64,000 nt of DNA from Planctomycetota bacterium (lineage in GTDB: Bacteria; Planctomycetota; UBA1135; GCA-002686595), in assembly GCA_012959525.1 (NCBI GenBank), contig DUDB01000072.1, positions 2,098 to 66,097 of the forward strand. Direction: 5' to 3'. The notes below the pieces were generated by a model. It was given only the letters and a program-made list of their open reading frames with translations. It made no database searches and had not been told where the DNA came from. Positions 44,015 to 56,834 of the stretch are shown in pieces; position 1 is the stretch's first letter, and each line of letters starts with the position of its first letter. The translations under genes were made by a program, and so were the position numbers.

Positions 44015-45568
44015 TCAGGGGCGCTCGCTGCCGATAAGGAGGTCGAGTAGCTCATCCAGATCCAGGATGTTGGGCATCCGCGGGTCTGTGGGGTCGAGGA
44101 CGACGCGCTTGATCTGGAGGTTCTGGGCGGCTTCGCGGGCCAGGTAGAGCCGACCGCCGGGGCTCTCAAGGACTTCGTTGTGAAGACGCTCCGAGAGAGC
44201 TCCCGCCTGGGCCAGAGCCAGCTGGCCCTGGGCCAGGAGGTGAGTCTTCTCGCTCCTGGCTTCCGATTGAAGCTGATGGACCGCAGCCCGGCTCTCACGC
44301 TCCAAGGCCTCTACCTGCTGGGCAAGGCCCAGGCCCTCGCCCAGGTTGACCTCGGTGAATTCGGCCTCGAGGCGGGCGGCATCTCCGAGATATTCCAGTC
44401 GGGCCTCGGCCAGGGAGAGAGAGGCCAGACGGTAGTCGAGGGCAAGGGGGTCTGCCGCCTCGGCAGTGACCGGCTTCGGATTCGCCACTGCCTTGGTCAG
44501 GGCTTTGGAAGCGCTCAAGAGGCGCTTGCCCTCTGCACTGGCCTCCGCCTCGGCAACCGCTCCGGCGGCGGCCACCTCGTGCGGGTATTCCTGAGCCGCC
44601 CGTTGGAGGGCATGCAGCTCCCGCTCCAGTTCAATGCGCTCCTGGGCAATCCGCAGATCCCACTCGGCTGCCAGGGCCCTCTGCTCGGCGGCCACCTCGT
44701 GCAGGCTGAACTCGCGCTGCAACTCGGCTGCTTGCAGGGCGGAGAGGGATTGGTTGGTCAGCTCGGTCTGGGTGGCGAGCTGCTTCTCATGCAGCTTGCT
44801 CTCGAAGGAGGGGTCGAAGTAGACCGCGCCGATGACGACCTCCATGGCCTCGAGGTGCACCTCTTCGAGATCGGCGTTGAGGCGTGTCAGTACAGCCTCC
44901 TCTACTTGCGCGCGTGCGTCGCTGCTGGCAAATGCGTCCGTGGACAACTGCCCCATCTCTTCCAGCAGCACGCGCCTTGCGATGGCTGTCACGCGGCGCG
45001 GGTAGTCGTTCTTCAGGCCCGCCTCAACCACACGCCAGGCCTGCCCGGGTTGGATCCGGTAGGGAATACACACGTTCACCTCGGCCGGGACGCCCCCTTG
45101 AATGGCCACGGCCAGCATGGGTTCGGTACCGCCGAGGTTCTCCCAGCCGAAGATCACGAACTGTGAGCCCCCGGCGATCTGATGCCAGGTGGAGCGGCCA
45201 CCCCAGGCGAGGTGGATGCCCGAGCCGTGGTCCCGTTCCACGATACCGGCGTTGTCGCCCCAGTTGATCTGCTCGACGGCCACCATGCCCGGGGGCACCC
45301 GTTCAAGGATCGAAGCACCCGCGATGCACACGACTGCCGCCATCACCAGGCCGCTGAGAGATGCCCTGAGAACTCGGCGCATGGGCCGCAGGCGATCACG
45401 CAGGCGGGTGGAAGAGGCGACGCCCCGGGCGCGCTGGAGGCAGGCACTGAAGAAGCCCCCGAGGACACTCAGGACTAAGGTGAACGGCCTTCCACAGGCG
45501 CGCAGCAGGGCTCCGAGGCCCCGCAGGATGGATCGGAAGACACCCTGGGTGGATTCGAGCATTGTCAT
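44015..45568 (-). CDS. SPFH/band-7 domain membrane protein with a long C-terminal coiled coil
   Basis: Arg-rich N-tail, TM LSGLVMAAVVCIAGASIL, SPFH-like core (VPPGMVAVEQ...GIHLAWGG...NVCIPYRI...) and about 250 aa of A/E/Q/L/R-rich heptad-like sequence. The ATG overlaps the upstream stop in an ATGA at 45565-45568. Confidence 0.7.
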   Translation of the reverse strand: MTMLESTQGVFRSILRGLGALLRACGRPFTLVLSVLGGFFSACLQRARGVASSTRLRDRLRPMRRVLRASLSGLVMAAVVCIAGASILERVPPGMVAVEQINWGDNAGIVERDHGSGIHLAWGGRSTWHQIAGGSQFVIFGWENLGGTEPMLAVAIQGGVPAEVNVCIPYRIQPGQAWRVVEAGLKNDYPRRVTAIARRVLLEEMGQLSTDAFASSDARAQVEEAVLTRLNADLEEVHLEAMEVVIGAVYFDPSFESKLHEKQLATQTELTNQSLSALQAAELQREFSLHEVAAEQRALAAEWDLRIAQERIELERELHALQRAAQEYPHEVAAAGAVAEAEASAEGKRLLSASKALTKAVANPKPVTAEAADPLALDYRLASLSLAEARLEYLGDAARLEAEFTEVNLGEGLGLAQQVEALERESRAAVHQLQSEARSEKTHLLAQGQLALAQAGALSERLHNEVLESPGGRLYLAREAAQNLQIKRVVLDPTDPRMPNILDLDELLDLLIGSERP

Positions 45569-46917
45569 TGGATGGGCTCCGAGTAGGCGATGACCTGGGC
45601 TTGGCCAGGGCTTGGGAGTTGGGGCGTGGGGGCGATCTCGATTGAGATCCCCATGAGCTTGTGGACCAGGGCGGCGCGCACGGCGGCAATACCATGGGCC
45701 GAGAAGGCGTCGGTCTGGGCTTGGAAGCCCTGTGCGTCCAGTCGGGCCACGTCCGTGAGGACCTGTGCCTCACGCTGGTCGGCCGCCAGGTGCAGTTGGG
45801 CCTCGAGCACCGCGGCCAGACTGGCGGATTGAGCGGCCTGCAGGGCCCTCTGCGATTCCCGCTGGGCTTGGACCCACTCGATCTGCAGCCCGTTCCGGAT
45901 CTTGGCTTGCTCCAGCCCCAGCTCCCGGCGCCTCTGTCCCAGCGCGGCCGCCTGACTTGCTCGGAGCCTCTGCTCCTCTTCCCGCAGGGTCGCCGTCGAG
46001 CGCTCCAGGTCCACGCGCAGGGCCTGGGCCTCGGCTCGGCTCTCGGCCAGAGCCAACTCGGATGCCAAGGAGCGGTCCGACTGCTTGCGATCCGCCGCGT
46101 AGCGGGTGAGCTCTTGATTGCGCAGGGCCTCCTGGATCAAGGAGTGAAGTGTCTCGCGCATGCGCACCAACTCCAGCTCCTTCTCCTTGCGCACCTGTTC
46201 CATGATGGCCGTGCGACCGGCCAGCATCTGGGTGCGCTCCACGTTGATCTTGAAGGCGTCCTGGTCGGCCACCTTGCGGCGGCTGATAGTCTCCTCGTAC
46301 TTGCCGGAGAACTTGGGCTTGGAGACGGAGACCTCGAGAACCGTCAGGCCGTGCCGGGCAAGGCTGCGTTCCAGGTCCTCCTTGGCCGCCAGGGTGGCGG
46401 CCTGCTTGGCGTTGGAGAGGAGCACCTCGGCAGGGGTCAACTGCCCGAATGCCGCGCGCAAGGCCCCCCTGGCGTAGGCATCCACGATGCCGTCCTTGAA
46501 GCCGCTGGTGGGTCCGGAGTCCAGGAGCGCGAGGGTCGCCGCTTCAGGGGCCAGGGCGTAGAGAACCTCCACCCGGTCGAATGAGAAGCAGGTGCCCTCA
46601 CGGCCGCGCACCACGAGCGTGGGCACATGGTTGGCATCCAGGCGTTCGCTACCCGCCATGATGTACTCCACGGGTCGCCGGTCCAGGCAGTAGATCTCTT
46701 GGAACCAGGGTAGGAAGGTCTGGACGCCCGGCCGTTCGATGTTCTCCAGGTCGTGTCCAAGGTGATCGGCGAAGACCGCCAGTTGATGGTCGTGGACGGT
46801 GGCCATACCGCCGTCCTGGGCCACGTGACGAAGCGCGAAGTAGAGGCCGGCGAAGAGCGTGAGTAGGGCCACGCCCATCTCGAGGACGATAGCTCCGCGA
46901 GTTGCGGATGAGTGCAT
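45565..46917 (-). CDS. SPFH/band-7 domain membrane protein with a long C-terminal coiled coil (paralogous partner)
   Basis: The ATG at 46915-46917 gives MHSSATRGAIVLEMGVALLTLFAGLYFAL (TM). The SPFH-like core has ERPGVQTFLPWFQEIYCLDRRPVEY...VEVLYAL...LTVLEVSVSKPKF. A/E/Q/L/R-rich coiled coil follows. The track start is at 46983. Confidence 0.7.
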   Translation of the reverse strand: MHSSATRGAIVLEMGVALLTLFAGLYFALRHVAQDGGMATVHDHQLAVFADHLGHDLENIERPGVQTFLPWFQEIYCLDRRPVEYIMAGSERLDANHVPTLVVRGREGTCFSFDRVEVLYALAPEAATLALLDSGPTSGFKDGIVDAYARGALRAAFGQLTPAEVLLSNAKQAATLAAKEDLERSLARHGLTVLEVSVSKPKFSGKYEETISRRKVADQDAFKINVERTQMLAGRTAIMEQVRKEKELELVRMRETLHSLIQEALRNQELTRYAADRKQSDRSLASELALAESRAEAQALRVDLERSTATLREEEQRLRASQAAALGQRRRELGLEQAKIRNGLQIEWVQAQRESQRALQAAQSASLAAVLEAQLHLAADQREAQVLTDVARLDAQGFQAQTDAFSAHGIAAVRAALVHKLMGISIEIAPTPQLPSPGQAQVIAYSEPIQ

Positions 46918-47030
46918 GTTGCTGGGGGGTGGGAGGATCGGAGGCGTGTCCGTCCATGGGCACACCTTGCGAATGCCCTCCAACCCCGCACGCGATGCGG
47001 GTTCCGTCCCAATTCGATTCTGCTAGCCGC

Positions 47031-50000
47031 TCAGGTGGCTCGCTGCACCCAGGTCTGGGCGATCTCGCTCAGATCCGGCCGTGTTCCGTCCGCGTCACCG
47101 AAGTAGTGCTTCTCGATATTCTGGATCTGCCCCTGCAGCTCCTCGCGAGAGTCGGGCGTCAGACCATTGGTGGACTCGATACGCCGCAGCAGTCCGATGA
47201 CCGTGAAGGGGGACAGGGGTTCGGGAACCGTGAAGCGTGCCTCGCTGGTGCCGCCTGCCGCAGACCTGAGCGCCGCGCGCACGCCCAGGACCAGGGCCAA
47301 CGCCACGGCCTGGCCCTCAAAATGCGCATCGGCCAACGCCACGGCCGTACCCAGCAGCCACGTCCAGAAGCCCGGTCCGTCCACTTCGCCGTAGCGGGCT
47401 TCCAACGAGATGGTCTGGCCGACAGAGGCCAGGTCCGCGTCCACATAGCGCTGGTAGGTCAACTCGACCTCTTCCTCGGGCAGAACGGCGCTGCCGAAGG
47501 CAAAGGAGTCAGGTAGCTGGGTGAGATTTTCCCCTGCCTGCATCTCGACCATGAAGGTGCGATCGCTGATCACCTGCGGCGCGGCGCTCTCGGCGTCGAA
47601 CTTGGAGATGGCGTTGCCCTGATCCTCTACGGAGACCACCTCAAAGCCCTCGGGAGCCAGATCGACCAGGTCCTCAAAGCTCGGCAAGAGTCCGCGGGCG
47701 CTGGCCTGGACTTCGAGCAGGAGCTTGCCACTCTCCGCCTCGCGCTCGTCCAGGGTCTGGGTCAGCTTGAGCTGCGCGAAGGGGCGCGGGTCCACCTGGC
47801 CCGAGCCGCAGTCGAGGACCACCGGGGACGACTCGATGGGCAGCAGGGCGTAGCCCACCGAATCCATGAAGTCCAAGTCGAGGCGCAGAGAGGGGATGCG
47901 GTCCACCTCCGGCCCGCGCGCCTTCAAAAGCACGTAGGCGTAGGGCGTCAGGCGCCAGCCGTACTCCGCCGTAGCGCGCGAGTGGGTGTCGGGGTGGTTG
48001 AAGGTGATGGACTGCACATCGAAGTGCTCGCTGAGCACGTCGTGGGTGAACTCCTCGAACTTGTCGCGGTAGTCCTCCGTGGGGCGCCCGTAGTTGAACG
48101 CATTCACCGTGGCGTTCTGATTCACCAGATACTTGCCGAAGCCACCCGACTCGCGCTCGATGGCGCCGGTGTGTCGTAGATTCACGAAGACTCCGAAGGG
48201 TTCTCCGCTGCCCACGTGCGCGCTGCCATCCACCGCAACGTCCAGCTGGATCTCTGTGATCAGGTCCTTGTAGTAGGTCAGGATCTTGTGGGCCTCGCGC
48301 GTGCGTTCTGTCTCGCCAGCGATCTTGAGTCCCGAGCGCAGATAGCTGTACTTGACGGCCGGGTTGACTGAGCCGATACGCGTGAAGAGCGCGTTGGCGA
48401 AGCGATCCATGTGACGCTTTGCTGCCTCGCCGGGGAGAGCCTCGATGGCTTCCTTGATGAGGGCGAGCTGGTTCTGTACGGGCTGCTTGTAGCTGTCGAG
48501 AGCCTGCAGGTCGCACGCCCCCAGGCTGGCGTAGAACCAGGTCTCGTACAGGTTCTGGGCCTCTTCATCTTCGTCCAGGTCGGGCAGTGCTGCCTGATAC
48601 AAGCGTGCCGCGTCGGCAAAGCCAGCCAGGGCCTCCTTGCGCTTGCCCGCAAACTCGCTGCTCTTGGCCACCTCCTGGCGGAAGTTGTTCTCGTCGTGGG
48701 CGACGGAGGCCAGGGCGATACTCAGAGCCCAGTCCCCGGGGTGGCTGTCCAAGGACTCCTGGGCCACGGTGGCGGCTGTGGAGTAGCCGCTCAGGATCTC
48801 GGCCTCGATGTCCTTCTGGCGCCGGTTGGTCTTCTTCGCTTCCTGGGTGGCGGGCCTGCGCCAGACACCCACCAGGTTCTTGCGCATCTCCTGCACGAGG
48901 GCGGCGACCGTACGCGGGGCCAGCTCGCTGAGATCCCCAAAGACCCTCTCGATGGTCTCCACCTGATAGACCTCCGCGCTCGAGTGCGCGTTTGTGAAGG
49001 CCGTGGCCACCAGCTCCTCGTTCACCCCCTCCAGGGGCAGGGCCCGAATACGCTGCACCCAGGCGGCGAGATCTTTCAGGTTGCGCTCCTGCTTGGAGCG
49101 CGTGAGCGGGATGCCCGCCGACAGTTGGCTGAACCCGTACACGAACATGTACTCATTGGTGCGGTTGTTGCTCGCGTTGGGGTTGTGGTTCCTGATCCAC
49201 ACGCGCAGAAACTCCTCTACCAGGGCCTCGGCCTGATCGGGGTGCGTCCGAGCCAGACGCTCTATGTAGGGGAACGCCTCCTCTTCGGCCTGGACCTTGA
49301 GCAGCAGCTGGGCCGTGACCATCTCGAACTTGGGACGCAGCCCCTGGGCGATCAGCTCCATCCACTGGGGGCTCGGGCGCATGGCGAGCATCTCGTTCGC
49401 CCCAATGGGGATGGGGGCGTTGCGATTGAACGAGGTGCTGGCCATGTTCGTGTAGAAGATGTTCCCGAAGGGGTCAACCTGCACGGACTGCCCGCGCGAG
49501 ACGGTGGTATCAAAGCTGTGGGTGCAGACCGCCTCCTGCAACCAGTTGTTGGCCAGCAGATTGAGGGTGTCGGCCCACTCGCGCGCACGCTCGGGGGCGG
49601 ACTCAAGGAGGGCTTCGGCCGCTGTGGTCTGTAGCTCCAGATTGGCGTGCCGTAGGGGCATGACCCGGGCCTGCTCGAGCAGGCCGCGCGAACTGGAGGA
49701 GCCCAGCAGCGCTAGGATCTCCGCCCCCCGCTCGGGCCGCGTCGTGAAGCTCTCCGTGAGCCAGGTCTGGCCCAGGGTCTCGTGCACCTTGGGTGCCAAT
49801 TCCACGGCGCGCTTGAGGGCTTCCTTCTTGGTGTCGTCTTCCACGTCGCCCGGAGCCAAGGCACTCATGGTGGCCTGCCAGGTGGCGTTCAGGTCGGTGT
49901 CCTTGTTGTCCCGCTGATACTGGGCCAGATGGTGTCGCGCCAGGAGGTTGAGGATGGGACGGTCATCGGCTGCCTGGGCCTCCTCCAAGGAGGGCAGGAA

Positions 50001-50981
50001 CTCGCCCGCCTCCACGAAGAAGTGGCCTTCCAGGAGAACGTGCGCTAGTTGCTCGTGGGCGAGGGGGAAATTCTCAGTGGCCAGGGCGGGACGCAGCGCA
50101 CTCAGGCAGCTATCGATGAGCACACCTTCGTTGACGGTTAGGCGCAGCAGCTGGCCCAATCCCTTGATCTGCAGTTCGACGACCTTGGCCGGGGCTGCGG
50201 CGACAAGTCCGACCAGGTCCTGAGCATCGAAGTAGTTCTTCTCCGCGAATGGGGCCAGAGAACCGTTGACCTTGACCGGACCCTCCGTCAGCGACTTGAT
50301 CAGTTGAGCGTAAGCGACGCGCCCTTCAGGCTTGGTGAGGGAGGCCAGGTATTCGCGCACGGCCTCCCACTCTCCCAGGGTGACTTGTCGCTGGAACAGG
50401 GCCAATTCGGCCTCGAGTTGCTTTTCCTCGAATTCTTCCGCCGCCTTCTCAGCGGCTTTCTCGGCTTTCTTCTCAGCGGCCTTCTGGGTCTTCTCCCGGT
50501 CCTCGGCAGCCTCCTCGATGGCCTCTGCGGCTTCCTCCTCGCTCATGCCCTCGAGATCCACTTCCTCGATCGGAACCTCGACCGGCTCGGCTTTCACCGG
50601 TGGTTCGGGTGCCTCGGGTGGTTCGGCGGCCCATGCGGAGAGGGAGGCCGAGGGGCGGCGATCGAAGACGAGCTTCTTCAGCTTCTTGCCACGGTCGGTG
50701 TCGGCTTTCTCCTCGGACTTGTCGTTCTGGCCCTCGGGCGCGGGAGGCTCTGGGATAAGACCCTGTTCCATCAGGGCCTTGAGCTCTTCCGGGCTGATTG
50801 GGGCCGGTACCAAGGGAAGGGCGCGCGTCGGACCCGAGATGATTGCGCGCCTCAGCGGGATAGCAGGTTTCGCGCGCACGGGTGTCTGCGCCCAGATGGG
50901 GGCCATTCCCCCTAGGCAGATAAGCGGTACGAGAGCCCGGATGGGGTCTTGGAAGAGCGAACGGGCGGACGGGTTCAGCAT
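47031..50981 (-). CDS. 1316-aa hypothetical secreted/membrane-anchored protein at the distal end of the MoxR-VWA array (the position BatD occupies in Bat operons)
   Basis: Signal-like N-terminus (LVPLICLGGMAPIWAQ). K/E/A-rich low-complexity block (AEKKAEKAAEKAAEEFEEKQLEAE). About 750 aa of helical-repeat-like sequence. A beta-rich C-terminal region. A hydrophobic segment AVALALVLGV lies near residue 1215, followed by a tail of about 90 aa. I recognise no catalytic motif. Confidence 0.7.
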   Translation of the reverse strand: MLNPSARSLFQDPIRALVPLICLGGMAPIWAQTPVRAKPAIPLRRAIISGPTRALPLVPAPISPEELKALMEQGLIPEPPAPEGQNDKSEEKADTDRGKKLKKLVFDRRPSASLSAWAAEPPEAPEPPVKAEPVEVPIEEVDLEGMSEEEAAEAIEEAAEDREKTQKAAEKKAEKAAEKAAEEFEEKQLEAELALFQRQVTLGEWEAVREYLASLTKPEGRVAYAQLIKSLTEGPVKVNGSLAPFAEKNYFDAQDLVGLVAAAPAKVVELQIKGLGQLLRLTVNEGVLIDSCLSALRPALATENFPLAHEQLAHVLLEGHFFVEAGEFLPSLEEAQAADDRPILNLLARHHLAQYQRDNKDTDLNATWQATMSALAPGDVEDDTKKEALKRAVELAPKVHETLGQTWLTESFTTRPERGAEILALLGSSSSRGLLEQARVMPLRHANLELQTTAAEALLESAPERAREWADTLNLLANNWLQEAVCTHSFDTTVSRGQSVQVDPFGNIFYTNMASTSFNRNAPIPIGANEMLAMRPSPQWMELIAQGLRPKFEMVTAQLLLKVQAEEEAFPYIERLARTHPDQAEALVEEFLRVWIRNHNPNASNNRTNEYMFVYGFSQLSAGIPLTRSKQERNLKDLAAWVQRIRALPLEGVNEELVATAFTNAHSSAEVYQVETIERVFGDLSELAPRTVAALVQEMRKNLVGVWRRPATQEAKKTNRRQKDIEAEILSGYSTAATVAQESLDSHPGDWALSIALASVAHDENNFRQEVAKSSEFAGKRKEALAGFADAARLYQAALPDLDEDEEAQNLYETWFYASLGACDLQALDSYKQPVQNQLALIKEAIEALPGEAAKRHMDRFANALFTRIGSVNPAVKYSYLRSGLKIAGETERTREAHKILTYYKDLITEIQLDVAVDGSAHVGSGEPFGVFVNLRHTGAIERESGGFGKYLVNQNATVNAFNYGRPTEDYRDKFEEFTHDVLSEHFDVQSITFNHPDTHSRATAEYGWRLTPYAYVLLKARGPEVDRIPSLRLDLDFMDSVGYALLPIESSPVVLDCGSGQVDPRPFAQLKLTQTLDEREAESGKLLLEVQASARGLLPSFEDLVDLAPEGFEVVSVEDQGNAISKFDAESAAPQVISDRTFMVEMQAGENLTQLPDSFAFGSAVLPEEEVELTYQRYVDADLASVGQTISLEARYGEVDGPGFWTWLLGTAVALADAHFEGQAVALALVLGVRAALRSAAGGTSEARFTVPEPLSPFTVIGLLRRIESTNGLTPDSREELQGQIQNIEKHYFGDADGTRPDLSEIAQTWVQRAT

Positions 50982-51240: not shown

Positions 51241-51879
51241 TCATTGGCTGGGCAGGGGGAGACCCTGGAGTTCGGACAGGTCCATGCGCGCCAGTCGGAT
51301 GGCGGATTCCAGATCCTCCCGAGCCTTGAGCACCTCAGATCCCTCAGCCTCAACGGCCTCGGCTTGACTGGCCAGCAGCTTGAAGGTCTGCCGTGCACTG
51401 TCGATGTGGGGCTCCCAGTCCTCCCGGGCTGCGCCTTCCAAGCGCAGGAGCCAGGTCAGGTAGTACTGGCTGGTGGCGAAGGTGCGCTGGGTGTCCGCCA
51501 GCAGGGCGGGGTCGACGCTCGGATCTTCGAGCAGTTCGGTGACCAAGCCGGCCAACGACGCGTTGGCGTCGGGCAGCTTGGAGATGTTCATCTGGGCCTT
51601 GGCGCGCTCCAACTTGAGGCGGCGCACGTCCTCCACACGCTCGCCCGGCAGGAGAGCCAGGGCCTCGGCGTATTCGGCCTCGGCGTCGAACCACTCCCCG
51701 CGTGCGGCGGTCTCGCCCTCTGCGGCGGTCAGGCGCACGGCCTCAGCGGCGTGGGCGTCCGCGCTGGCTATCAGCGTGGCGGCATCATCCAGGCGCAGGT
51801 GATCCTGGCCCGGGCCCATGTGGTAGGCGTAGGCAGCGACCGGCAAGGTCAGCCAGGTGGCGATAAGGAGTCGTTTCAT
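51241..51879 (-). CDS. Secreted all-helical (TPR-like) hypothetical protein (the position BatC occupies in Bat operons)
   Basis: Signal peptide MKRLLIATWLTLPVAAYA. 212 aa of Ala/Glu/Leu-rich helical sequence. Same strand, between the VWA genes and the giant ORF. Confidence 0.55.
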   Translation of the reverse strand: MKRLLIATWLTLPVAAYAYHMGPGQDHLRLDDAATLIASADAHAAEAVRLTAAEGETAARGEWFDAEAEYAEALALLPGERVEDVRRLKLERAKAQMNISKLPDANASLAGLVTELLEDPSVDPALLADTQRTFATSQYYLTWLLRLEGAAREDWEPHIDSARQTFKLLASQAEAVEAEGSEVLKAREDLESAIRLARMDLSELQGLPLPSQ

Positions 51880-52045: not shown

Positions 52046-53068
52046 TCAACGCCGTATTCCCGGCCTCCAACGGGTGCCGAAGAGCTGCAACAGCAAGGGC
52101 AGGAGGGCGAGCCAGCCCGCTCCGAGTCCGCAGGCGGCCAAGGCGTACTCGCGTAGGCTGAGCTGCTCAAGCGCGCTCTCCGCCCCGCTCTGGGTCAGGT
52201 CACGGATCAGAACCGAGCTCAGGTGCTTGGTGTTGCCGTTGTGGAATGATCCCCCCAGGCGGGTGGCAATCTGCCTCAGGGTGGATATGTCTTGTCGGGA
52301 CTGGGCACCGTCGATGAACGAGCCCGCACGCGGGTCGCCGACTCCCACGACCAGGACCGACTCGATGGAGGGTGGCATCTTGGGCATGCCTTGGGCGGGC
52401 ACGGTGTCACCGTCGCTGACCAGGATCAACGTCGTCGAGTTGGGCTCCCAGGCCTTCGCCGTCTCGGCCGCGGCCTGAAGTCCGTCAAAGAGCTTGGTCT
52501 TGCCGGCTTCGAAGGCGAAGTGAAGAGGCAGGTCTCCCAGGATGTTGCGCACCACCTCCACGTCGCGTGTGCGCTTCACCACGGGCTTGGCGCCGTTGTA
52601 GACGGCCAGTACCGTGAAGCGGTACTGCTCCAGCGGTACCCGGCGCAAGAAAGAGTCGAGCACGTCGCGCGCCCGGTGCATGCGGCTCTGGTGCTTGGTT
52701 GGCCCCGCGTCTTCAAGGCGCATGCTGGGGGAGACGTCGAGTACCAACAAGACGTTCTTGTTCGCATCGTCAACTCCGAAGGCTCCTCCCGCGCCGCTGT
52801 GCACCTTGGGGATCAGGCTCCAAAGGGTGATCAGGCCCCAGGCCAGCGCACCTCCTGCGAGAGCGCGCAGGAATGGAACCATGCGGACCCAGGCAGCAGG
52901 CTGCCCCTTGGGCCCAAAGGCTAGTCGCGCCACCGGCAGCAGGCGCCGCAGATGCAGCAACTCCGCGCAGAGGATGATGGCCATGACGCTGGCCGCAACC
53001 ACAAGACCAGGGCCGCTATCGAATTCCAGGCCGGGGCTCGGGCTCACCTGCGGGATGGTGGCTACCAC
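52046..53068 (-). CDS. VWA-domain membrane protein (BatB-like)
   Basis: Two N-terminal TM segments. MIDAS LVLDVSPSM. VWA core ...ILVSDGD... C-terminal TM LAACGLGAGWLALLPLLL. The start overlaps the upstream stop by 7 nt. Confidence 0.8.
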   Translation of the reverse strand: MVATIPQVSPSPGLEFDSGPGLVVAASVMAIILCAELLHLRRLLPVARLAFGPKGQPAAWVRMVPFLRALAGGALAWGLITLWSLIPKVHSGAGGAFGVDDANKNVLLVLDVSPSMRLEDAGPTKHQSRMHRARDVLDSFLRRVPLEQYRFTVLAVYNGAKPVVKRTRDVEVVRNILGDLPLHFAFEAGKTKLFDGLQAAAETAKAWEPNSTTLILVSDGDTVPAQGMPKMPPSIESVLVVGVGDPRAGSFIDGAQSRQDISTLRQIATRLGGSFHNGNTKHLSSVLIRDLTQSGAESALEQLSLREYALAACGLGAGWLALLPLLLQLFGTRWRPGIRR

Positions 53069-53988
53069 GGGTTGTACCTCAATCCGAAGGAGGCCAGCAG
53101 GGTCCCCGCCAGCAGAGCCATGGCTGCCAAGGTCCAGGGTCCGTAGTCGTCGATGGCCTCGGATGAGGTCTTCTCGATGCGCGTCTCCTGCATTTCATCG
53201 ATGCGCTGGAACACATAGGCCAGTCCTTCCACGTCCCCAGGGCTGAAGACCGCACCGCCCGTCTTAGAGGTGATGTCCACGATGGGGGCGGGGATGCTGC
53301 CGCCCGCCACGTGCACTCCGTAGACGGTGACGTTGTCGGCGATCAGGTCGCGCACGATCTCGTCTCCACGATTGCCGTTCAGGTCGGAGCTGAACCCATC
53401 GGAGATCAGGATGATCATCCGATCGCCCTCCTCACGACTGGTGAGCACCTTGCGGCAGGCCTGCAGCGCTTTGCCGATCTCCGTTCCACCGAACCAGCTG
53501 GGGATGTTGCCCGGGCGCATAAAAGGTGGTGCGCAGCGGAACGCGGACACGTCGGTGGTCAGGGGCACCCAGTGCAGGACCGAGTTGCCGAAGAAGGTCA
53601 GGCCAAAGGCATCACCCTCCCTGAAGTTCAAGAAATCATTGATGGCCACCATGGAGGCGTCGTACCGGTTGCCTGGTCCAAAAGGGGCGGTCATGGATCC
53701 GGACACGTCCACGCAGAACTCGATGTTGGTTAGGACCTTCTTGGCTTGGGGTTCGTCCCAGCGTTGAGGGCCGGCCAGGAGGATCACCACCAGGATCAGG
53801 GTCAGTGCTGGCAGGGACTCCGCGCTGCGCAATAGGCTGCTCAGTACTCGCCCACGGGTCGCGTGACCGTGGTCGAAGGGCAGAAACAGGCGCTGGCCCC
53901 GGCCACTCCAGATCCAGATCAGCAGCGCGGCCGGAAGCAGCAGGCCCAAGAGGGCCCACGGGTGCCGGAAGGGAACCAGGAACTCCAC
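53062..53988 (-). CDS. VWA-domain membrane protein (BatA-like)
   Basis: The N-terminus MEFLVPFRHPWALLGLLLPAALLIWIW is typical of the BatA/aerotolerance N-domain. MIDAS FCVDVSGSM. ILISDG. C-terminal TM. Confidence 0.85.
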   Translation of the reverse strand: MEFLVPFRHPWALLGLLLPAALLIWIWSGRGQRLFLPFDHGHATRGRVLSSLLRSAESLPALTLILVVILLAGPQRWDEPQAKKVLTNIEFCVDVSGSMTAPFGPGNRYDASMVAINDFLNFREGDAFGLTFFGNSVLHWVPLTTDVSAFRCAPPFMRPGNIPSWFGGTEIGKALQACRKVLTSREEGDRMIILISDGFSSDLNGNRGDEIVRDLIADNVTVYGVHVAGGSIPAPIVDITSKTGGAVFSPGDVEGLAYVFQRIDEMQETRIEKTSSEAIDDYGPWTLAAMALLAGTLLASFGLRYNPW

Positions 53989-53991
53989 GGT

Positions 53992-54879
53992 TTAGCCGTC
54001 CTGTCCAAGAGTGGCCGGGCCGGGTGCCGTCGCCTCCCACTCCCGATCCCAATCCTCGGACGTGAGGTTGCGATAGGGAGCCAGTAGTTGGGCCGGGTCC
54101 ACGGCCCCCCGCCCATCGGCAGAGCCAGGACTGTGCAACCAGCGCTCGAGCTCGCCCAGCAGGATGCCCGCCTCCTCGTGTTGCTTGAGCCGTGTCAACA
54201 CTTCGGCCGCAGGCAGGTCCTGGATACCCAGTCGCTTGCGCCAGATGGCGATCAGGATCAGCTCCAGGCGGGCCTGCTCTTCGAGGGGCAGCTCACCGCG
54301 AGCTCCGCGTTCTACAAGGGGCGCGAGGCGTTCGGCGAGGGTGGGGGGCGGGGTGTCCTCTAGCGCGCGGGCGGCCTGGACCGTGCGACGGCGACTGAGC
54401 CACCAGGCCAGAGTGCCCAAGACCCAACCGATACCCAGTATCCAAAGGGTTCGGCCGTACCCTCCCAGGTCGGGGGTGGCACCTTGCGTCACGGGGTTGG
54501 GCTTGACCTGACCGGATGGCAGATGGCTTTCGATTCGGATCTGTAGGGGAGGGAGGGCTCCCATCTCAGAACCGTCCGCCCTTTGCAGAAAGTCCAGTAG
54601 GTTGTAGGTGCCGGGCTCCAGGCCGTAGTACTCGAAGTCGTAGCGCCGGTCCGTGCCGTGGGGAGAGTCCGAATCGATGCGCACGATCAGAGGCGTCTCG
54701 ATGTCGGCCGGTCGTACCTTGAGGGCCGTCCCCTTCAGTACCACCTCCCTTGACCAGCGCGGGACACCAACGGGGATCGCTTCGTCTTGGGCAGTCGCCT
54801 CCTGGGTCGCCGGGACGTGGTGCGATGCGGCCGGTAGTGCCAGGGCCAGCTGAAGTGGGAGGAGAAGCCAGGAAGTCAT
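53992..54879 (-). CDS. Hypothetical single-pass membrane protein between DUF58 and the VWA genes (the position DUF4381 occupies in Bat operons)
   Basis: Signal peptide, an ectodomain of about 140 aa, TM TLWILGIGWVLGTLAWWL followed by SRRR, then a helical tail of about 120 aa. Tightly packed against its neighbours (1-nt overlap upstream, 3-nt gap downstream). Confidence 0.6.
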   Translation of the reverse strand: MTSWLLLPLQLALALPAASHHVPATQEATAQDEAIPVGVPRWSREVVLKGTALKVRPADIETPLIVRIDSDSPHGTDRRYDFEYYGLEPGTYNLLDFLQRADGSEMGALPPLQIRIESHLPSGQVKPNPVTQGATPDLGGYGRTLWILGIGWVLGTLAWWLSRRRTVQAARALEDTPPPTLAERLAPLVERGARGELPLEEQARLELILIAIWRKRLGIQDLPAAEVLTRLKQHEEAGILLGELERWLHSPGSADGRGAVDPAQLLAPYRNLTSEDWDREWEATAPGPATLGQDG

Positions 54880-55742
54880 CAGCGTGCGGTCCTTCCCAGT
54901 AAACCCCGGGACGCGAAGAAGTGCCGCACACCGGCCAGATAGGGCTGGCCGCAGAGGACGCGATGGTGATCAATGCCGGACCGACGCAGTTGAGTTTCCA
55001 GTTGCTCCTGGTCGAGGTGCTGGCGTCGGCTGTGTGTGCTGAATGTCTGGCCGCTCTCGGCTTCCTGCGCGCGCATGAATCCCGCGCCACTCAAACCCTC
55101 CTCCGCAGGATCTTGCATCTGCAGCACGGCGCAGTCGTGCAATTGGGCGGCCCGCTTGAGTGCGTTGATTGCGCCGGGGTCGTGCAGGTCCGAGAGGACC
55201 AGGAGCAGGACGCGCGAGGTCAGGCTGGGCATGAGCTCGCCCAGGCGCTGAGTAAGGGTCGTTCCTTCGTCGTGGCGGAAGCGGCGCAGCGTCAGCATCC
55301 ACTGCATGATCTGGGCCTTGGACAGGCTGGGTCGCACCTGGAGCCGGCGCGTGCCCACCCCCAGAACTCCTACCGGGCTGACCCGGTCGAGGGCGGCCAG
55401 GGCGATGCCTCCGGCGAGGATCAGGGCCGTCGGGTACTTGCCCGAGGGCACGGAGGAGAGGGTCATGGAGGCCGAAGTGTCGATCAAGAGGTAGACCGGC
55501 ATGCACTTGGGTGCCTCGTACTCCTTGATGTAGGCCTTGCCCGTCCGCGCGATCACGCGCCAGTCCAGGTCTCGCACCGGGTCGCCGTGCTCGTACTGCC
55601 GCGACTGGGCAAACTCGACGCCGCTGCCCAGGAAAGGAGAGCGATCGCTGCCGTAGCTCAGGTTGTCGGCCAGGCGGCGCATGACAATCTGAAACTGCCG
55701 GGAGTCGAGGAACTCGACCTGGTCCAGGGTGCTGGTCTGCAT
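54879..55742 (-). CDS. DUF58 domain protein (MoxR-associated, VWA-like fold)
   Basis: FLGSGVEFAQSRQYEHGDPVRDLDWRVIARTGKAYIKEYE is the signature DUF58 motif. LLIDTSASM follows. Lies immediately downstream of MoxR. Confidence 0.88.
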   Translation of the reverse strand: MQTSTLDQVEFLDSRQFQIVMRRLADNLSYGSDRSPFLGSGVEFAQSRQYEHGDPVRDLDWRVIARTGKAYIKEYEAPKCMPVYLLIDTSASMTLSSVPSGKYPTALILAGGIALAALDRVSPVGVLGVGTRRLQVRPSLSKAQIMQWMLTLRRFRHDEGTTLTQRLGELMPSLTSRVLLLVLSDLHDPGAINALKRAAQLHDCAVLQMQDPAEEGLSGAGFMRAQEAESGQTFSTHSRRQHLDQEQLETQLRRSGIDHHRVLCGQPYLAGVRHFFASRGLLGRTAR

Positions 55743-55757
55743 GGATCGAGGTCGGGG

Positions 55758-56834
55758 TCAGGCTTCGGCGGTTGCCCTGGATCCGTTCGTGCCTGGTGCG
55801 GCGACCTGGCCGTTCAGATTTGCCTCGTCGCCCGATCCCATGTGGGCCAGCATTTCTTGCAGGACGTTGGCTGTCGTCTTGCCGTCGGCCAGGGCTTCAT
55901 AGTTCAAGCGCAGGCGGTGAAGAACGACATCCTCCGCAAGAGCGAACAGATCCTCGGGGATCACGTAGTTCCGCCCGAAAAGGAGTGCCCGCGCCCTCGA
56001 TGCCTTGATGAGCGAGATGCCCGCGCGGGGGCTGCCTCCCAGCTCAATGTCCGGGTGCTTGCGCGTGCGCCCCACCAGTTCGACCACGTGCTCCAGGAAG
56101 GTGTCGCTCACGTGCACGCTCTGAACCGCCTCCATGGCGGCGATGATGTCCTCGATACCGCCCACGGGGCTGTCGTCAATCACGTCAAATTCGGTGGCCA
56201 CTACGGCGCCTCCGTCCCGGCGCTGCACTCCCAGCGCTGCGTTGCGACGCAGGATGACGCGCTCTTCGTCGGGGGTGGGGTAGTCCAGTCGGTGCAACAG
56301 CATGAAGCGATCGAGCTGGGCTTCGGGCAGTTCAAAGGTGCCCGACTGCTCCACCGGGTTCTGCGTGGCGATGACCAGAAAGGGCGCGGGTAGGGTGAAG
56401 GGCTCGCCCCCGATGGTGACCTTGCGTTCTTGCATGGCTTCCAGGAGGGCTCCCTGGACCTTGGGGGCGGCGCGGTTGATCTCGTCTGCCAACAAGAGGT
56501 TGGTGAAGACCGGCCCCTTCTCCGTGCGGAAGGTGCTGGTGGATTGATCGAGGATCTCCGAGCCCAGGATGTCCGCGGGTAGCAGATCGATGGTGAACTG
56601 GATGCGGGAGAAGTCCAACCGCATGGCCTTCGAGAGGGCCGAGGCCAAGAGGGTCTTGGCGATGCCGGGTACCCCCTGCAGGAGGATGTGGCCACCGGTG
56701 AAAAGGGAGATCAGGAGGCGCTCAACGACAACGTCCTGACCCACAACCACCTTGGCTATGCGCTCGCGCACGTCCTGGATGAACTGGGCGCTCTGGCTGA
56801 AGTCGGCGTTCGGGGCAGGGGGGATCTGGCTCAT
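55758..56834 (-). CDS. MoxR-family AAA+ ATPase
   Basis: VVVGQDVVVERLLISLFTGGHILLQGVPGIAKTLLA (Walker A). LLADEINRA (Walker B). VIATQNP. QLDRF. Confidence 0.92.
   Translation of the reverse strand: MSQIPPAPNADFSQSAQFIQDVRERIAKVVVGQDVVVERLLISLFTGGHILLQGVPGIAKTLLASALSKAMRLDFSRIQFTIDLLPADILGSEILDQSTSTFRTEKGPVFTNLLLADEINRAAPKVQGALLEAMQERKVTIGGEPFTLPAPFLVIATQNPVEQSGTFELPEAQLDRFMLLHRLDYPTPDEERVILRRNAALGVQRRDGGAVVATEFDVIDDSPVGGIEDIIAAMEAVQSVHVSDTFLEHVVELVGRTRKHPDIELGGSPRAGISLIKASRARALLFGRNYVIPEDLFALAEDVVLHRLRLNYEALADGKTTANVLQEMLAHMGSGDEANLNGQVAAPGTNGSRATAEA

Follow-up and report, generated by a model that had tools for sequence, protein, structure and literature searches.

A 1316-residue protein encoded in a 64,000-nucleotide (nt) stretch of a Planctomycetota bacterium genome (GenBank assembly GCA_012959525.1, contig DUDB01000072.1, positions 2,098 to 66,097; hereafter the window) is, on balance, best read as a periplasmic scaffold or adaptor that takes the part of BatD in a Planctomycetota-specific paralogue of the Bat-type MoxR/DUF58/VWA operon (VWA, von Willebrand factor A). 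This probable assignment draws on conserved synteny, the orthology of the MoxR component, the BatD position and topology of the protein, a profile similarity to BatD, precedents in which BatD is joined to tetratricopeptide repeats (TPRs), the periplasmic placement of the VWA domains, intact DxSxS motifs, and a construction from binding-type folds only. An earlier note, produced by a model that saw the sequence alone, had described the protein as a membrane-anchored giant with no recognisable domain and had grouped it with the MoxR/VWA genes upstream and an SPFH pair downstream as part of an undescribed envelope-associated system. Six genes precede the giant on the same strand, and together they form the following block (window coordinates):

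47031..50981, minus strand: the giant (P0001), whole open reading frame (ORF) from ATG to stop, stop included; 1316 amino acids (aa); supported by homologues and by an AlphaFold2 (AF2) model with a mean predicted local distance difference test score (pLDDT) of 90.
51241..51879, minus strand: p212, a small exported helical protein at the BatC position, placed by synteny; its TPR matches are weak (E 0.08-0.4).
52046..53068, minus strand: VWA2 (BatB-like), with three hydrophobic segments and a DVSPS metal ion-dependent adhesion site (MIDAS) motif; PF13519, hydropathy.
53062..53988, minus strand: VWA1 (BatA-like), with two N-terminal and one C-terminal transmembrane (TM) helix and a DVSGS MIDAS motif; PF13519, PF00092.
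53992..54879, minus strand: p295, with a signal peptide, about 130 periplasmic aa, a TM segment (WILGIGWVLGTLAWWLSRRR) and a cytoplasmic helical tail; conserved in the block.
54879..55742, minus strand: a DUF58 protein, VWA-like, with a DTSAS motif; PF01882, E 9e-31.
55758..56834, minus strand: a MoxR AAA+ ATPase (AAA_3 and AAA_lid_2); PF07726, E 2e-61; PF17863, E 5e-22.

The DxSxS motif is intact in all three VWA-type proteins (DUF58, VWA1 and VWA2). NCBIfam models for BatA and BatB match VWA1 and VWA2 only below their cut-offs, BatA_Lepto reaching E 8e-14 on VWA1, and Pfam gave no match on p295.

Synteny was examined by tblastn with the window proteins against 42 loci fetched around the giant in other genomes, 39 of which carried enough flanking sequence. 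The block MoxR-DUF58-p295-VWA-VWA-p212-giant was recovered in 36 of these 39, which come from many families, five circular permutations included, and gene tables drawn up for relatives' loci agree; the tie to the upstream MoxR/VWA genes claimed in the earlier note is thus well founded. Routine occurrence of the giant without such neighbours, which the note had named as evidence against the link, was not found: only three of the 39 loci (L002, L074 and L076) keep p212 and the giant together with MoxR/VWA elsewhere. The tightest syntenic partner of the giant is p212, which adjoins it in 37 of the 42 loci, lies at the far end of the block in L059 and went undetected in four (L060-L062 and L038); p212 and the giant are the minimal retained pair. 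The MoxR of the block is 61-75% identical to the MoxRs of giant-type operons in distant families, but shares only 44% identity with the MoxR of the canonical Bat operon in its own genome. These identities, together with the kept gene order, mark the block as an old, vertically kept orthologous unit.

The five permuted blocks (L059-L062 and L081) stay contiguous and co-directional. Loci L059-L062 follow the order giant-MoxR-DUF58-p295-VWA-VWA-p212, with p212 detected only in L059, whose downstream flank reaches that far, and L081 reads VWA2-p212-giant-MoxR-DUF58-p295-VWA1.

It could be argued that the giant is a mere conserved neighbour: a TPR protein of the periplasm that does work of its own, its link to MoxR/VWA being a relic of gene order. 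The separation of the genes in a few lineages would agree with such a reading; however, the order is kept across families whose proteins share only 30-50% identity, circular permutation leaves the block together as a unit (L059-L062 and L081), and its MoxR forms an orthologous group of its own. We therefore regard a purely positional association as very improbable indeed.

The ORF itself is a real gene and no chance frame in high-GC DNA, as judged from its full-length homologues, hundreds of profile-matched clusters, occurrence in at least 509 species genomes and an AF2 model with pLDDT 90. A word-indexed search with the giant returned 359 proteins; among the matches listed, lengths were 1230-1420 aa with 44-99% identity over nearly the full length, and all those bearing a label were 'hypothetical proteins' of Planctomycetota in which Pfam has no domain. 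With a profile built on the C-terminal third, 972 clusters (50% identity) were matched at E<=1e-3, 483 of them at E<=1e-30; the best 150 of the 972 were inspected in a representative search, and all proved to be members of the giant family. The count of at least 509 species comes from a scan of one genome per species, and in an even sample of Planctomycetota the giant was present in 45 of 401 genomes. Carriers are labelled Pirellulaceae, Planctomycetaceae (Gimesia and Fuerstiella), Gemmataceae, Isosphaeraceae (Aquisphaera insulae) and Phycisphaerales, with Tundrisphaera also represented.

Members of the family are nearly all from Planctomycetota. A few full or partial members stand under other bin labels (Alcaligenaceae, Burkholderiaceae, Verrucomicrobiota, Akkermansiaceae and Ca. 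Paceibacteria); most sit on short contigs and are close to planctomycete sequences, so these are likely mis-binned, while a true presence in Verrucomicrobiota may still exist. Entries of 400-700 aa that looked like stand-alone C-terminal modules were set aside, as the two inspected (P0348 and P0415; loci L161 and L162) are frameshift-split giants from long-read metagenome assemblies. A literature search found no paper describing the giant family, which is undescribed together with p295 and p212. To that extent the 'undescribed system' of the earlier note stands; the operon around these proteins is nevertheless a lineage-specific paralogue of a known, mechanistically unexplained type (Bat/MoxR-MRP).

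Two AF2 models were built from the family alignment, one of residues 190-1316 (m99a481dfbcd7; mean pLDDT 90.0, predicted TM-score 0.73) and one of residues 895-1316 (mean pLDDT 90.1). Both start after a conserved N-terminal peptide, which lies outside the modelled region. Read with hydropathy and the alignment of homologues, the models divide the giant into these predicted parts:

50889..50981, minus strand: signal peptide, residues 1-31 (…ALVPLICLGGMAPIWA and then QTP), without a lipobox; sequence reading, hydropathy peak at residues 13-31.
50628..50690, minus strand: conserved N-terminal peptide KLKKLVFDRRPSASLSAWA, residues ~98-118; alignment of homologues.
50397..50627, minus strand: P/E-rich disordered linker followed by an E/K/A-rich helix, residues ~119-195; sequence, hydropathy and alignment.
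48252..50396, minus strand: TPR-like alpha-solenoid of ~715-720 aa, residues ~196-910; helices throughout in AF2, pLDDT mostly >90.
47832..48251, minus strand: beta-sandwich 1, residues 911-1050; DSSP of both AF2 models.
48030-48173, minus strand: near-invariant helical insert of sandwich 1, residues ~937-984 (HTxxIERESGGFxKYLxNQN…YNYGRPTEDYRDKFEE); invariant alignment columns.
47397..47831, minus strand: beta-sandwich 2, membrane-proximal, residues ~1051-1195; DSSP, AF2 models, and hhalign to BatD.
47280..47372, minus strand: single TM segment, residues ~1204-1234, FWTWLLGT[AVALADAHFEGQ]AVALALVLGVR; hydropathy and TM-region alignment.
47034..47279, minus strand: cytoplasmic helical tail of ~82 aa, residues 1235-1316; three high-confidence helices in AF2, conserved columns.

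The signal peptide is of the Sec type, its h-region ALVPLICLGGMAPIWA being followed by Q, and an N-terminal hydrophobic segment is common to the homologues, many of which end it in AxAQ or similar. Beyond it, a P/E/K/A-rich low-complexity block spans approximately residues 75-195 and contains AEKKAEKAAEKAAEE at 168-182; the linker and E/K/A helix differ in both length and sequence among homologues. Embedded in this region, the N-terminal peptide has R108, R109, P110 and S111 invariant in an alignment of 30 homologues. The most conserved part of the family is the insert of sandwich 1 (HTxEIERESGGFxKYLQNQN…YNYGRPTEDYRDKFEE). The TM region, where AF2 pLDDT is low, is followed by an Arg-containing stop-transfer and a tail that begins RFTVPEPLSPFTVIGLLRRIE and carries the conserved pattern RFxxPExxTPFTVLGLLRxIE…LExHYF…PDLxxIAxxW. 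Basic residues occur after the TM segment in homologues too, which places the tail in the cytoplasm and the bulk of the protein in the periplasm.

Judged from these sequence features, the giant is predicted to be exported via its Sec signal peptide and to stay attached to the cytoplasmic membrane through a single C-terminal TM helix; the modelled ~720-aa solenoid and two immunoglobulin (Ig)-like beta-sandwiches lie in the periplasm and the helical tail in the cytoplasm. Nearly all of the architecture proposed in the earlier note has held up, namely the signal peptide, the charged low-complexity block, and the TM segment with its tail. The helical region is indeed a helical repeat, of ~720 aa (residues 190-910 in AF2) where ~750 had been given, and the beta-rich part resolves into two sandwiches totalling ~280 aa (residues 911-1192) in place of ~300. 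The TM segment does serve as a single anchor, with the correction that a 12-aa insertion, AVALADAHFEGQ, interrupts the helix in this assembly. Structure prediction and membrane topology, both proposed in the note as checks, gave a well-modelled solenoid with two beta-sandwiches (AF2 pLDDT 90) and, from hydropathy and alignment, one TM segment followed by basic residues with the bulk of the chain periplasmic.

The consensus of the N-terminal peptide is KLKxLxFDRRPSAILxAWS, and the linker that joins it to the solenoid is very variable in length and composition. To judge by its sequence, the peptide looks like a short linear motif or a plug.

No named domain was found in the giant, as the earlier note had anticipated, by Pfam, NCBIfam, PADLOC, or PDB sequence, profile and fold searches. 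Pfam searches of the whole protein, of two fragments (E<=10) and of 30 homologues returned noise without a specific match. NCBIfam gave nothing specific on the giant apart from one spurious V-ATPase E match on the E/K/A block, and PADLOC defence models found 0 families among nine proteins (the seven of the block and the two SPFH proteins). Searches of PDB sequences with the giant by phmmer and by profile likewise yielded only noise, for example CsdE/YgdK at E 0.3. The Pfam TPR clan produced isolated weak matches, each in one of 30 family members, and 34-residue TPR motifs were not recognised. With Foldseek against the PDB, the large model retrieved only generic TPR/HEAT superhelices (TM-score 0.1-0.2, identity 8-14%). 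The C-terminal model retrieved generic Ig-like tandem sandwiches, none specific; the best were Ost1/ribophorin I and ZrgA, the latter at TMt 0.44 over one sandwich, while Ost1/ribophorin I, antibody Fabs, T-cell receptors and integrin lay at a TM-score of ~0.14. Sequence and fold searches thus describe a protein built of binding-type folds, without an enzyme-like match.

Several of these structural likenesses merit comment. Helical-repeat superhelices of eukaryotic TPR/HEAT scaffold subunits serve as binding platforms. The giant shares a long right-handed superhelix of helical repeats with the Integrator INTS subunits, Ctr9, Ski3, the TPR region of OGT and the TPR subunits of the APC/C, but the resemblance is one of fold class and not of homology (TM-score 0.1-0.2, identity 8-14%). 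Ribophorin I/Ost1 (6s7o_E, 6ezn_A) has, like the giant, a tandem beta-sandwich ectodomain, a single TM segment and a helical cytosolic domain; its E value is ~1e-4, yet its TM-score is only 0.14-0.18, and since the remaining matches are Fabs, T-cell receptors and integrin, the likeness is a generic Ig-like one. Membrane-coat-like proteins of the Planctomycetes-Verrucomicrobia-Chlamydiae (PVC) group, reportedly described by Santarella-Mellwig et al. in 2010, are said to consist of an N-terminal beta-propeller followed by an alpha-solenoid. The giant is not such a protein: in the AF2 models it has no propeller, and its order is solenoid, two beta-sandwiches and TM segment.

The absence of cofactor signatures bears on a different proposal, in which the giant is a client that is folded, inserted or metal-loaded by a MoxR/DUF58/VWA chaperone and then acts alone. 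MoxR-VWA pairs such as CoxD/E, NorQ/D and CbbQ/O are maturation factors for specific clients, and this established role lends the proposal some credit, as does the fact that p212 and the giant can be encoded apart from the MoxR part (L002, L074 and L076); the giant is, furthermore, the sole component big enough to be a 'product'. Yet metal-site or cofactor motifs were not recognised in it and its Cys residues are neither abundant nor conserved, while the conserved TM segment and cytoplasmic tail that it retains, like BatD and p295, suit a coupling element better than a released product. The one-to-one, stoichiometric synteny fits a complex equally well. A chaperone-client relationship is considered unlikely.

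The assignment as a BatD equivalent rests in part on a comparison within the same genome. A six-frame search with PF13584, the BatD family, matched one place only, on contig C36 (L012:5568-15778), where the genes run MoxR-DUF58-DUF4129 protein-VWA-VWA-376-aa protein-BatD-sulfatase. This locus is a canonical Bat-type operon, and its BatD (P0122; 575 aa, PF13584 E 6e-17) occupies the position that the giant fills in the window. BatD and the giant are alike in being the last large gene of a MoxR-DUF58-x-VWA-VWA-x operon. Moreover, the C36 protein consists of a signal peptide, beta domains, a TM segment, an RRRR run and a helical tail of ~95 aa, so that BatD and the C-terminal third of the giant share one topology: signal peptide, periplasmic beta-sandwiches, one TM segment, an Arg-rich stop-transfer and a helical tail of ~85-95 aa. 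Other features of canonical Bat operons recur in the window, with a MoxR-proper (AAA_3 and lid) first, DUF58 next, and then two membrane-anchored MIDAS VWA proteins. The correspondence is less clear for BatC, the TPR protein between BatB and BatD, in whose place p212 is helical and exported, with TPR matches of only E 0.08-0.4. No counterpart was found for BatE, the TPR and SH3 protein encoded last: neither the giant nor the downstream (SPFH) genes have an SH3 or TPR match in Pfam.

The two proteins also differ in build. BatD has three or four sandwiches and the giant two; the giant is 2.3 times longer, owing to its ~720-aa N-terminal solenoid, linker and conserved N-terminal peptide. BLASTP between the giant and the BatD of its own genome was not significant (best E 0.11, giant 1069-1121 against BatD 298-354). 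Comparison of the two families by hhalign gave a probability of 53% and P 1.3e-4, aligning giant ~1046-1121 with the central domain of BatD (281-354), and the C-terminal parts alone gave 72% and P 3.4e-5; across all giant-BatD comparisons the range was 52-72%, with P from 3e-5 to 1.5e-4. The score of 43.1 stands against 18 for a reversed control and 19.2±3.3 (maximum 26.7) for 30 block shuffles. In the aligned motif one recognises how a BatD sandwich typically begins (LPV…RP…, G-L-L-V, G-G, P-L, GF-V), the central pattern tested being …PvPEEGRP…GAVG…GD.I.L.V…G.GN…PdL…F.GFrV. Sandwich 2 of the giant is, by this profile comparison, a probable remote homologue of the BatD core domain. The remote homology search suggested in the earlier note has thus brought no confident match to a characterised family, and one weak match to the central domain of BatD.

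Chains that combine BatD with helical repeats have been seen before. BB0170 of Borrelia burgdorferi joins BatD, TPR and SH3 (PMC5700661), and the planctomycete proteins P0163 and P0184 carry PF13584 and TPR in one chain. These fusions resemble the giant in uniting beta domains and helical repeats in one membrane-anchored chain of a Bat operon, but in them BatD is recognisable to Pfam and the TPRs are canonical, mostly C-terminal and on the other side of the TM segment, whereas the solenoid of the giant is N-terminal, periplasmic and unmatched by TPR models, and SH3 is absent. Canonical BatD and the giant co-exist and do not simply replace each other, as PF13584 was found in 153 of the 401 sampled genomes and in 23 of the 45 giant carriers, about half of them.

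Among the smaller components, p295 has the layout of the giant C-terminus and of BatD (signal peptide, small periplasmic domain, TM segment, RRR and helical tail), and hhalign of p295 against the TM segment and tail of the giant gave a probability of 43%; against BatD the same comparison was negative. In Bacteroides fragilis, the gene at the p295 position reportedly carries a BatD domain (PMC5700661). Comparison of p212 with the giant and with BatD by hhalign gave nothing convincing, and BLASTP found nothing significant between p295 or p212 and the corresponding proteins of the canonical Bat operon in this genome. A scan for promoters and terminators between the giant and its neighbours was uninformative.

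VWA1 and VWA2 each have three hydrophobic segments by hydropathy, and the positive-inside pattern indicates that both of these BatA/B-like proteins have a periplasmic VWA domain. A periplasmic VWA orientation has been shown experimentally for BB0173 of Borrelia (PMC5700661). Neither MoxR nor DUF58 has a signal peptide or a convincing TM segment by hydropathy, the single weak peak of DUF58 (1.6) falling just past its DxSxS motif, inside the Pfam DUF58 region. The conserved cytoplasmic parts of the membrane components are only the VWA loops and tails, the p295 tail and the giant tail.

On this basis a working mechanism may be sketched. The two sandwiches of the giant would form the membrane-proximal stalk of a complex anchored in the cytoplasmic membrane, and its solenoid could act as a platform on which p212 and the MIDAS faces of the periplasmic VWA domains bind. 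The VWA MIDAS sites could be completed by acidic residues that are conserved in the giant, for example those of the invariant ERESGGF / EDYRDKFEE insert. The tails of the giant and p295 may couple the cytoplasmic DUF58/MoxR ATPase pair to the periplasmic assembly, which the pair would build or remodel. Other Bat/MoxR-MRP operons suggest, by analogy, that the assembly would serve envelope maintenance or stress tolerance and that the giant would not itself be a catalyst; work cited in PMC5700661 ties Bat/MoxR operons to aerotolerance and envelope integrity in some bacteria.

The conserved insert could also be read as the active site of an envelope-acting enzyme (HTxEIERESGGF…YNYGRPTEDYRDKF), with the solenoid holding the substrate. 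It is the most conserved stretch of the protein, and numerous His, Glu, Arg, Tyr and Lys positions in it do not vary among 117 homologues. A sulfatase-fold protein is encoded after each Bat-type operon of this genome, a hint of nearby envelope polymer chemistry. However, no enzyme family was matched by sequence or fold, ~48 residues of helices on an Ig-like sandwich are more typical of an interface, the motif decays in divergent members (e.g. L073 and L081) in a manner unexpected for a catalytic site, and the sulfatase gene is no conserved companion of the giant. An enzymatic role is accordingly judged decidedly improbable.

A bolder proposal treats the whole seven-gene block as a phylum-specific trans-membrane mechanical device. 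Here, ATP hydrolysis by MoxR/DUF58 in the cytoplasm would power a periplasmic solenoid of ~130 kDa suspended from a MIDAS-VWA anchor on either side, with transmission through the giant and p295 by way of their TM helices and conserved tails. The device would organise or tension the unusually large planctomycete periplasm, or link the cytoplasmic membrane to the peptidoglycan or outer membrane, and the tethered N-terminal FDRRPS peptide would be a regulatory plug or a second attachment point. Taken with all of these elements together, the proposal is improbable.

Several points weigh against the giant as a BatD-equivalent scaffold. Homology to BatD is unproven, as it concerns one stretch of ~75 residues at an hhalign probability of 52-72%. 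PF13584 has no match on the C-terminal 417 aa of the giant at E<=10 nor on 30 homologues at E<=1, and in its own genome the same model finds the other locus and not the giant. Sandwich 1 holds the invariant polar residues H937, T938, E942, R943, E944, Y964, R966, R972 and K974, a block as compatible with an active site as with an interface. Coupling within one operon is not obligatory, given that p212 and the giant lie apart from MoxR/VWA in L002, L074 and L076. In Leptospira biflexa, moreover, deletion of all bat genes gave no phenotype (PMC3557215).

Few bacterial gene clusters that lack a mechanism are as widespread as the Bat-type MoxR/VWA operons. As a scaffold of the kind favoured here, the giant would be the lineage-specific 'output' subunit of one such operon, and the BatD position could then hold a far larger, solenoid-bearing protein. 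The family is large and well folded, has no Pfam entry and occurs in at least 500 species; it deserves a domain or family entry. Concrete interaction hypotheses follow: p212 and the VWA MIDAS sites would contact the solenoid, and DUF58/MoxR the cytoplasmic tail. Cultured carriers exist, among them Aquisphaera insulae and Tundrisphaera sp. TA3. The finding overturns nothing known: function is inferred, and a surprising mechanism has yet to emerge.

The interruption of the TM helix deserves separate mention:

47310..47345, minus strand: 36-nt in-frame insertion in the giant, encoding 12 aa (AVALADAHFEGQ, residues 1213-1224) in the middle of the TM helix.

At the DNA level it consists of a 15-nt direct repeat, GCCGTGGCGTTGGCC, and 21 nt, GATGCGCATTTTGAGGGCCAG, followed by the same 15-nt repeat at 47295-47309; the 21-mer occurs once in the genome. 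Apart from the 12 extra residues, the window giant equals P0002 (1304 aa), which is found on nine contigs from several samples. The insertion is missing from all homologues and from five other assemblies whose sequence agrees with the window to 99.94-100% across 7-24 kb. It splits the TM segment into hydrophobic halves of ~13 and ~10 residues, a stretch in which the confidence of the AF2 model collapses. It may be either a rare allele, possibly crippling the anchor, or an assembly artefact.

Downstream of the giant lies the SPFH/band-7 pair with long coiled-coil tails (window 44015-46983). The earlier note had counted it as part of the unit. These genes lie next to the giant in no loci but those of the same species and genus (L005-L009 and L045) and are absent from all other loci with at least 4.5-5 kb of downstream sequence, so the pair falls outside the conserved unit and was ruled out as part of it. 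No terminator-like site precedes the pair, and co-transcription with the giant may occur here.

A sulfatase-fold protein of ~760 aa follows both Bat-type operons of the genome, in the window after the SPFH pair; in the tblastn loci from other genomes it is not conserved with the giant. Its motif is non-canonical, NPAHISIMTG in the window and IPAHVSLLTG at C36, and the two proteins are 25% identical (E 9e-11).

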